DNA of 24,548 nucleotides from a virus (Duplodnaviria; Caudoviricetes): positions 1 to 24,548 of IMG/VR virus record IMGVR_UViG_3300005805_000472. One strand, written 5' to 3'. Made by a program: the position numbers and the translations under genes. A model generated the notes under the pieces. That model made no database searches, was not told where the DNA came from, and saw nothing but the letters and a program-made list of their open reading frames with translations. Shown in pieces: positions 2 through 22,803 of the stretch. Within the stretch, counting starts at the first letter, position 1, and each line of letters starts with the position of its first letter.

Positions 2-884
2 TACGCAGCCATTCAGGATGCAGTGATCGAAGCTAAGAAAATGTACGCTGTCGGTCAGGTCGATCGTGAATCCGTAAAGGCAGCTTCTACCAATGAAGGT
101 GCTTTTATCGAGCTCACCAAGTTCTCGACTCAGAAAGCTGTTGAGAGCTGGATGCGCAACATGAGCCGTTCGCTGTTCAATGATGGATCTGGCAAGCTCG
201 GCGTTTCTACTGCCGCTGCTGCTGGTGGAACAGCTGCTGCTCCTACGATCGTCATCTCTTCTGCGACATGGGTCGAAGCTAACTGGGAGGAGAAGGACTT
301 TGTCATGATCGATTCGGCTACTAATGCCTATTCGACCAGCAATATGTGGGAAGTGAGCTCTGTTGATCCTGCTACCCGCACGATCACCCTTGCTCGTATC
401 TCCGGATCGGTTGACTTGACTGCTGATACTGGCGCGAAGACGGTCTACATGCAGAATTCCAAGGACAATGACCCACAGGGTCTTAAAGGCGTCCTGGATG
501 CTACTTCTGGATCGCTCTACAGCGTCACTGTTGGACGTCGCTGGCAGGCTGGATCTCAGATTGCTGCTGGTGGTGCAGGTATCACCCCAGACGTTTTGAA
601 TCAGGCTATGATGGAGATTCAGCGTAAGTCTGGTAAGGTGCCTAACCTCATCATCACCAGCTTCACGCAGTTCCGTAAGTTGCTGAACATCCTCGAAGAC
701 CAGAAGCAGTATCTTCTCGACCCACGCGCAAGCGATCTGGTTGGAAAGATCAGCTTTAAAGGGATAGAATTCATGAGTGCAGCTGGCGCAATTGGGGTCT
801 TCCCCGAGCGTTTCTGTCCAGACGATCGAGTCTATCTCTTGAATGACAACTTTATTTCAATCTATCATCGTCCCGATTTTGGAT
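2..884 (+). CDS. Major capsid protein, exon 1 (5'-truncated by window edge)
   Basis: Frame is open from nt 2 (YAAIQDAVIEAKKMYA...). Capsid-like content (DPQGLKG, LNQAMMEI..GKVPNLIITS, PDDRVYLLN). First gene of the structural operon. Coding continues in 1152-1282 after intron removal. Confidence 0.85.
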
Positions 885-1151
885 CACATCGGAAGGTCCA
901 ACTCGCCGCGTAAGCGGGAGATATAAAACTGGAGTATATCGGTGAACCCTGAAATGGGAATACCGAGAGCCAGACTCAAGGATGAGTCGGTTTGTAACGC
1001 GTAGAGGCCAGGAATAAGATGCCTCCAAGAGTCTCCGGCAACCGAGAAGTAAACGGTTGAAAATGTACGCTGAACTCACTGGAAACAAACGGTGAGAACT
1101 ATCGGATAAAAAGCCGGTAGGGTAACATCTAAGTAGTTGAAACTACTTATG
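885..1151 (+). ncRNA. Group I self-splicing intron, ORF-less, 267 nt (IA-like, has P7.1)
   Basis: 5' exon ends in U884, intron ends in G1151. P1: UUGGAU 879-884 pairs with GUCCAA 896-901 with a U.G wobble at the splice site. P10: CAUCGGAAG 887-895 pairs with 3' exon UUUUCGAUG 1152-1160. P3: CUGGAG 929-934 / CUCCGG 1033-1038. P7: GCGUA 999-1003 / UACGC 1066-1070. P2 (GUAA loop), P7.1 GAGGC/GCCUC, P8 CAACCG/CGGUUG and three P9-type hairpins are also visible. Removal restores ...HRPDFG-F-FDDDGTVF... Confidence 0.93.
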
Positions 1152-1282
1152 TTTTCGATGATGACGGGACAGTATTTTTAAGAGATGCAGGGTCAGATAG
1201 CTATAGCTTCAGATATGGAGGCTATTGCCAAACCTATGTGGTCCCACCTTACCACGGTGTGATCTCTGGTCTCGCGACCTAA
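1152..1282 (+). CDS. Major capsid protein, exon 2 (C-terminus)
   Basis: In frame after splicing: (F)FDDDGTVFLRDAGSDSYSFRYGGYCQTYVVPPYHGVISGLAT*, a typical capsid C-terminus ending HGVISGL, followed by TAATAA and a hairpin. Not in the ORF track. Confidence 0.9.
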
Positions 1283-1289
1283 TAAAACT

Positions 1290-1321
1290 TGAGGGGATGG
1301 GGTAACCTGTCCCCTCATTTC
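1290..1321 (+). terminator. Stem-loop after capsid gene; probable leaky intrinsic terminator or mRNA stabiliser
   Basis: TGAGGGGATGGG-GTAA-CCTGTCCCCTCA forms a 12-bp stem with a GNRA loop and only a short TTTC tail. Confidence 0.7.
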
Positions 1322-1674: not shown

Positions 1675-1754
1675 GCGCCGATACCTCAGTGGCAGAGGAC
1701 TTCTGACCGAAGATCAGGCAGAAGAAGACGTGGGTTCGATTCCCTCTCGGCGCT
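1675..1754 (+). ncRNA. tRNA-like cloverleaf with non-canonical 25-nt anticodon arm
   Basis: Acceptor GCGCCGA/TCGGCGC; TA at positions 8-9; D arm CCTC-AGTGGCA-GAGG; arm CTTCTG-N13-CAGAAG; 5-nt variable loop AAGAC; T arm GTGGG-TTCGATT-CCCTC (one mismatch); discriminator T then CCC, no encoded CCA. Confidence 0.75.
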
Positions 1755-1770
1755 CCCTTTAAGGAGACTT

Positions 1771-22045: not shown

Positions 22046-22216
22046 TTATTCAGCGCCAGCCTGTTTCTTCTGATTTTCAATACCAGCCTTGGAGTAAGAA
22101 GCAAGGTCTTTGCCCTTTACATCGCCCATGGCGTCGATCTTAGACGACTTAACGCCCATTTTTGATTTATCAGACGACTTAGCCTCAGCTTTGCCGCCGT
22201 AGTTTTGTTCTTTCAT
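22046..22216 (-). CDS. 56-aa Lys/Gly/Ser-rich hypothetical protein
   Basis: GGAGG RBS before MKEQNYGG; followed by the terminator. Confidence 0.65.
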   Translation of the reverse strand: MKEQNYGGKAEAKSSDKSKMGVKSSKIDAMGDVKGKDLASYSKAGIENQKKQAGAE

Positions 22217-22297
22217 GTTGGAGCCTCCAAACAAACAATAACACAGCTAAAAGCCTTTAAGGTCAATGCTAGGATAAAATCGGGAGCAGGGCGCGAA

Positions 22298-22516
22298 CTA
22301 ACCGTTACCGTCACCGGAACCGGAACCGTTACCGTAGCCGTAACCGTCACCGGAACCGTCACCGTTACCGTAACCGTTACCGTAACCGTTACCGTTACCG
22401 TAACCGTAACCGTCACTGACACCGGAACCGGAACCGGAACCGTCACCGAAACCGTAACCGTAATCGAAACCGGAACCGGAACCGGAACCGGAACCGTCGT
22501 GCGCTACACTTTCCAC
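22298..22516 (-). CDS. Gly-X repeat protein (GSGDGYGYGNG)
   Basis: Overlaps the upstream gene's end; stop codon falls exactly at the end of the repeat; GTG start uncertain. Confidence 0.55.
   Translation of the reverse strand: MESVAHDGSGSGSGSGFDYGYGFGDGSGSGSGVSDGYGYGNGNGYGNGYGNGDGSGDGYGYGNGSGSGDGNG
22301..22498. repeat. Degenerate hexamer tandem array (NNC-GGT)n on - strand, about 33 units
   Basis: + strand units accgga/accgta/accgtt/accgtc/accgaa. Confidence 0.95.
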
Positions 22517-22803
22517 GATGGAACTCCTTGAATTGCTTTCATTGCTTCATTTGTACACTCCGCAATTTCAAACCCTTGTGGGCTGATGATCGTTGTTCTA
22601 GGGACTGGCATTCCAAACCGATTATCACCTTGCGTTGGGCCTGTAACTGCAACTTGCGAAAGGCTCGCTCCGTACCAACGCCACAGACGTATTGATTGAG
22701 TCAAAACGACTTGATCTTTTTTGATGGACTCCAAGTAACCGGCGTGAACTCCGGCAGTATGGGACCTAACAATAACATACTTCTTTTTTGTTTTTTTCTT
22801 CAT
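22504..22803 (-). CDS. Conserved phage protein (DUF6948-like, by recall)
   Basis: YVIVRSHTAGVHAGYL...IRLWRW.GASLSQVAVTG; this family is often next to Gly-X repeat ORFs. Confidence 0.75.
   Translation of the reverse strand: MKKKTKKKYVIVRSHTAGVHAGYLESIKKDQVVLTQSIRLWRWYGASLSQVAVTGPTQGDNRFGMPVPRTTIISPQGFEIAECTNEAMKAIQGVPSWKV

Follow-up and report, generated by a model that had tools for sequence, protein, structure and literature searches.

The group I intron in the major capsid gene of a freshwater phage closes the unspliced reading frame with Leu-Ala-Ala and a stop codon. This ending is conserved as protein sequence, and it probably acts as an ssrA-like tag that would direct the truncated product to ClpXP or another protease of the host. 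The window, by which we mean the whole stretch of DNA analysed, comprises 24,548 nt (positions 1-24,548 of IMG/VR record IMGVR_UViG_3300005805_000472, Caudoviricetes).

The capsid gene and its intron

The features of the locus, all on the + strand, are as follows.

2..884, +: exon 1 of the major capsid protein gene, its 5′ end outside the window, terminating in GGA-T
879..901, +: P1, with a U884.G896 pair at the 5′ splice site
884..913, +: nine-codon tail SHRKVQLAA plus TAA, a predicted ssrA-like C-terminal degron
885..1151, +: group I intron of 267 nt without an endonuclease ORF, terminal G1151, z −6.1
887..901, +: internal guide, of which 887-895 also takes part in P10 with exon 2
887-895 with 1152-1160, +: P10, nine pairs between guide and exon 2
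902..920, +: P2 hairpin, GUAA loop at 910-913, G905 bulged
902-910, +: Leu, Ala and Ala codons, in the 5′ strand of P2
911-913, +: stop codon TAA, inside the GUAA loop of P2
929..1071, +: catalytic core, with the P3-P7 pseudoknot, the P4-P6 domain and P8
929-934/1033-1038, +: P3, core helix
939-944/961-966, +: P4, core helix (P5 also lies in the core)
967-993, +: P6/P6a, core
997-1003/1066-1071, +: P7, with bulged C998 and the G-binding G-C pair G999-C1070
1039-1059, +: P8, core
1076..1151, +: three P9-region hairpins and the terminal G, from the fold
1152..1282, +: exon 2, the final 43 codons of the capsid protein, with the spliced end ...ISGLAT

Exon 1 scores 27.4 bits against the Pfam profile PF17236 (SU10_MCP), above the cut-off of 24.1, and the capsid exon sequence retrieved 980 homologs. 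The Atlas places a full-length capsid homolog among viral clusters at 0.98-0.99, one of which is named as a major capsid family. The capsid profile found no matching PDB chain, and exon 1 no cultured phage. By profile and homology the intron-bearing gene is an SU10-type major capsid gene.

Deleting 885-1151 from the sequence rejoins HRPDFG to FFDDDG, followed by 43 further residues counted in exon 2. At the insertion site 45 of 47 related viral loci read through uninterrupted, the other two terminating earlier, and in a contig from run X4 position 884 is linked to 1248 by 96 letters, the exact intron-free length. The intron is also present in a relative from runs X2 and X3, where base pairs are preserved by compensatory changes at 933/1034, 968/992, 970/990 and 978/983. 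The Rfam group I families gave no match at E ≤ 1 over the whole window or at E ≤ 10 over 860-1180; the intron anatomy was assembled by hand. By this anatomy and these boundaries the 885-1151 insert is a group I intron of the self-splicing type.

Translation of the frame 2-913 yields ...HRPDFG-SHRKVQLAA-stop, that is, nine non-capsid residues past the capsid sequence (counted on sequence alone) and a free C-terminal Ala-Ala of the LAA type. Translation and fold together bear out the sequence-only reading of this DNA, which had described nine added codons ending at a TAA in the P2 GUAA loop, and its statement that the tail nucleotides double as IGS, P10 and P2 is equally borne out (P1 at 879-901, P10 at 887-895/1152-1160, P2 at 902-920).

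Elsewhere in the window, a GC-rich inverted repeat at 1289-1318 (+), directly 3′ of the capsid stop codons, looks terminator-like by eye. A tRNA-like gene at 1675-1756 (+) lies directly past the gene downstream of the capsid (Rfam tRNA, 49 bits; tRNA-Phe by ARAGORN) and has an anticodon loop of 15 nt rather than 7; the X2 and X3 contigs part from the window near it, at ~1665. A low-complexity repeat occupies 22205-22531, where a minus-strand 72-codon ORF (22298-22516) rich in Gly, Ser, Tyr and Asn lies behind a 110-codon ORF.

Ala-Ala endings among intron-bearing genes

Homologous capsids were searched for with the exon as the only query, one search being length-limited to exclude intact capsids. 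Besides the window, 20 homologous proteins were short of at least 30 C-terminal residues. Thirteen of these depart from the capsid sequence 42-45 residues before its end, and 11 of the 13 end in LAA and two in AEA. Their tails have 8, 10, 13 or 15 residues, against 9 in the window, and start at slightly differing points, the frame nonetheless being kept. Relatives that retain P2 and lose the LAA-stop or its frame, the outcome the sequence-only reading had named as contrary to a degron, are not the pattern observed, with LAA ending 9 of the 11 same-site clusters. The seven other truncated homologs, which are known as proteins alone, stop at scattered sites, none with Ala-Ala (0/7). For one same-site relative (L600) the DNA is available, and its intron has an LAA end for which both Leu and Ala use different codons, P2 having been re-paired; another relative (L303) has two introns elsewhere in this capsid family, both ending IAA. 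The two same-site proteins ending in AEA (P0131 and P0159) may reflect another tag or protease in their host.

We surveyed introns with scans keyed on the P4-P6 core that left the tail untouched, obtaining 530 validated hits in 340 clusters. The host frame was the longest upstream open frame, named via Pfam, PHROGs and BLAST, and the host-frame counts omit 104 clusters classed as short and 47 classed as tRNA. A metagenome scan contributed six loci, one of them a same-site intron; an exon-plus-P4 scan of viral contigs (120 loci) found zero capsid introns and is excluded from all counts.

Capsid host frames end in Ala-Ala in 18 of the 37 capsid introns (the window being one of the 37) and in a nonpolar residue followed by Ala in 25; 19 do not end in Ala-Ala, of which 12 also lack the nonpolar-Ala end. 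The off-frames of the same introns end in Ala-Ala in 1 of 74 cases (Fisher p = 1e-9, where, as in all Fisher tests here, clusters at 75% identity are counted as independent and significance is overstated). The ending is found in 2/43 endonuclease ORFs, 1/22 terminase genes and 2/36 enzymes and others (the last two jointly 3/58), 1/16 other virion genes and 6/35 unnamed long frames. The contrast of capsid with other genes has a naive p of 9e-7. Frames named later fit this distribution: a tail-tube gene ends in CPLAA and two capsids in ELAA and GEVA, and the motif is missing from a helicase, a dUTPase, an exonuclease and one virion gene. On these counts, phage group I introns do not in general carry the Ala-Ala tail. 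The enrichment that the sequence-only reading proposed to look for holds in part, namely for related capsid introns, which retain both the LAA-stop and its frame, and not for phage introns at large.

Introns near capsid codon 20 (about four sites) end in Ala-Ala in 1/9 cases (p = 0.06), only a hint of an effect of product length on the ending. In close relatives (L017, L022 and L086) another intron interrupts this capsid gene early, at codon 19, with an unspliced product of ~20 residues that ends YGK or YGS and so lacks Ala-Ala.

Several individual introns are worth recording. Five lie in tail-tube-like genes with an ELEVTAMG motif and end in CPLAA or CPVAA (L076, L123, L140, L144 and L150); the first of these genes is named as a major tail protein and ends in CPLAA. 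The endonuclease ORFs of L312 and L124 themselves end in Ala-Ala (CGLAA and GSMAA), where a degron might cap the level of the nuclease. In L354 a group I intron interrupts a microvirus capsid (F protein) gene, and the unspliced frame ends SVNA within the core.

Peptide end, RNA fold and descent

The ending could in principle be a by-product of RNA structure: P2 and its GNRA loop would be kept for folding, the stop would halt ribosomes, and LAA would be incidental to a GC-rich stem. Such loops do offer stop codons free of charge, since 99 of 323 P2 loops are of the GUAA/GUGA type and supply UAA or UGA, and an in-frame stop by the 5′ splice site is already known (PMC3073962, PMC3984707, in the portions of these papers available). 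The use of the stop, as opposed to its presence, is what goes with Ala-Ala. Where the host frame stops in a GUAA/GUGA loop, Ala-Ala precedes the stop in 9 of 14 cases, the window being one of the 14; where the host frame leaves the loop's stop unused, it does so in 0 of 75 (p = 3e-9). This comparison omits ten clusters, nine of them short or unclear with at least 28 open codons (three ending in Ala-Ala) and the tenth L076, misfiled as tRNA and ending in CPLAA. GCNGC is absent upstream of stop-free GNRA loops (0/98), and of the P2 stems that served as controls, each capped by a GNRA loop, 0/171 would give Ala-Ala, including 0/23 GC-rich stems, so that the caveat of the sequence-only reading, that a GC-rich P2 might yield LAA by chance, fails.

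The codons themselves point the same way. Over the last two codons of 33 capsid introns, first and second positions hold 0.64-1.05 bits, against 0.05 and 0.19 bits at the third positions, which are thus unconstrained; all four Ala codons occur, and the stops are TAA (n = 16), TAG (n = 12) and TGA (n = 5). In the window, G905 is bulged in P2, yet as the first base of an Ala codon it is required for Ala. The 18 capsid Ala-Ala stops, placed by offset from P4 as automated 5′ splice-site finding proved unreliable, fall at −59, −35 to −33, −27 to −24, +61 and +160; because these offsets vary, the motif must occupy different RNA elements, and it is found in P1 and P6 loops too. The 18 cases span at least five capsid groups. 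Six of the 18 overlap with the guide, in which the exon dictates GCC in part, a point in favour of an RNA origin; without those six, Ala-Ala still ends 12 of 31 frames (p = 8e-7 versus off-frames). We regard the by-product account as the least probable of those considered here. Conservation in these introns tracks the frame that is read and not the fold of the RNA, and comparison of the sequences gives good support for selection acting on the end of the peptide.

Descent offers a different account, in which a few motif-bearing intron lineages spread among capsid genes and the tag is now functionless here. Near-identical 5′ ends (KQxCRLAA, CPxAA) in capsid, terminase and tail-tube genes are what such spread would leave, and the link to capsid genes does not reach significance when six pairs independent by phylogeny are compared (median p = 0.63, or 0.25 with the broader motif), a test that is underpowered. 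In a tree of 83 intron cores, built with P2 excluded and with bootstrap values unsettled, the 18 Ala-Ala rows are distributed across both main groups, a single Ala-Ala clade is rejected (AU p = 9e-61; 15 changes required), and the intron of the window and the same-site intron of L600 are non-sisters. The last 12 nt are distinct in all 18 capsid cases, and a functionless tag would hardly explain a frame maintained through varying tail lengths, or the relative in runs X2 and X3, which has 34 differences from the window over 682-1210, none of the 33 listed falling within 885-932. An inherited relic is very unlikely on this evidence.

A role of the peptide end or its codons outside proteolysis, such as efficient termination and ribosome release, fast refolding of P2 once a ribosome has melted it, or mimicry of the native capsid end, has somewhat more to recommend it, and we consider it unlikely. 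Any translation-linked role predicts the motif at used stops only, as found, and intact homologs of the capsid family have nonpolar ends (LAT in 99/170, LAV in 46/170). None of these 170 ends in LAA, which fits avoidance of a tag, although mimicry of the native end competes with that view. For P2 refolding, Gly, Arg or Pro codons would serve and third positions would not be free; a termination role should hold equally for endonuclease ORFs and the genes of enzymes, in most of which the motif is absent; and the same end has been reached convergently by tail-tube genes and by capsid families with no relation to each other.

A proposed degron and its known counterparts

Statements from the cited papers here refer to their accessible portions. 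If the ending is a degron, ribosomes trailing RNA polymerase would arrive at the intron ahead of splicing and halt in the P2 loop, which would keep them from the core. The capsid subunit released would be short of its final 43 residues, and the free Ala-Ala carboxyl end on its nine-residue extension would be bound and the subunit degraded by ClpXP or a related protease. A terminal Ala-Ala-COO− is the main determinant for ClpXP, for which a five-residue extension is enough (GFP-yalaa; PMC7652416), and bacterial tags mostly end in LAA, with LVA, AAV and SVA as used variants (PMC9382460). Proteins that are made in great abundance and assemble themselves (capsid, tail tube) would gain most, as cases where one faulty subunit could spoil a whole particle. 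As a broader proposition, the balance of the comparisons tilts towards phage group I introns having repeatedly and independently evolved an ssrA mimic in their 5′ helices, one that would destroy the truncated proteins read from unspliced mRNA.

It has long been asked how self-splicing introns survive in essential genes that are heavily translated while still being transcribed, and the usual answer is the in-frame stop codon alone. A conserved degron would be a second layer, and would predict which genes can host introns. One stretch of sequence would carry three codes simultaneously: splice guide, RNA helix and protease signal. If the proposal is true, the tag would be to bacteria what nonsense surveillance is elsewhere, and an adaptation enabling introns to enter the genes for capsid and tail tube, in which a truncated subunit would poison assembly. 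In practice, over-short capsid calls ending in Ala-Ala may signal an unannotated intron.

Capsid introns, early stops, ssrA-like degrons and a yeast intron-encoded degron are each already known separately. A stop shortly past the 5′ splice site is thought to exclude ribosomes from the core (PMC3073962, PMC3984707, PMC8565351), and T4 td and other bacterial and phage group I introns have, like the window, an in-frame stop just inside the intron. Those introns are described for the stop only, the fate of the truncated protein going unmentioned in the accessible portions of the three papers, whereas here the preceding codons are conserved as Ala-Ala. Group I introns in major capsid genes are reported for crAss-like Delta and Zeta phages (PMC7886860); there too a capsid gene is the host, but of a different capsid family, and the accessible part of that paper has nothing on the tails of unspliced products. 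In SIBR-Cas (PMC8565351) an engineered ssrA tag is proposed that is added after splicing, the reverse of the arrangement in the window.

The tmRNA ssrA tag and natural Ala-Ala C-degrons of ClpXP likewise place LAA at the C-terminus of an incomplete protein (PMC7652416, PMC9382460). The window's tail, unlike ssrA, is encoded in cis by the intron, without stalling or trans-translation, and it lacks the portion that precedes LAA in E. coli, given in those papers as AANDENY. A tmRNA tag proper is ruled out, as the tail is encoded in cis and its last three residues alone match; no tmRNA gene was found in the window.

The sequence-only reading knew of no description of such an arrangement. For phage introns this stands, as the literature searched (mostly papers outside subscription, supplements excluded) yielded no degron within group I introns of either bacteria or phages; the logic itself has a precedent in yeast HAC1. 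There the protein made from unspliced mRNA (Hac1u) has an intron-encoded C-terminal tail that hastens its degradation in a Duh1-dependent manner (PMC5114014, PMC8002603), and the unspliced product in the window shares the intron-encoded tail, here a predicted degron. HAC1 is eukaryotic, spliced by Ire1 and a single regulatory gene, whereas the phage introns combine a ribozyme of the self-splicing type with a bacterial motif, occur in many unrelated structural genes, and have the putative tag overlapping working RNA helices.
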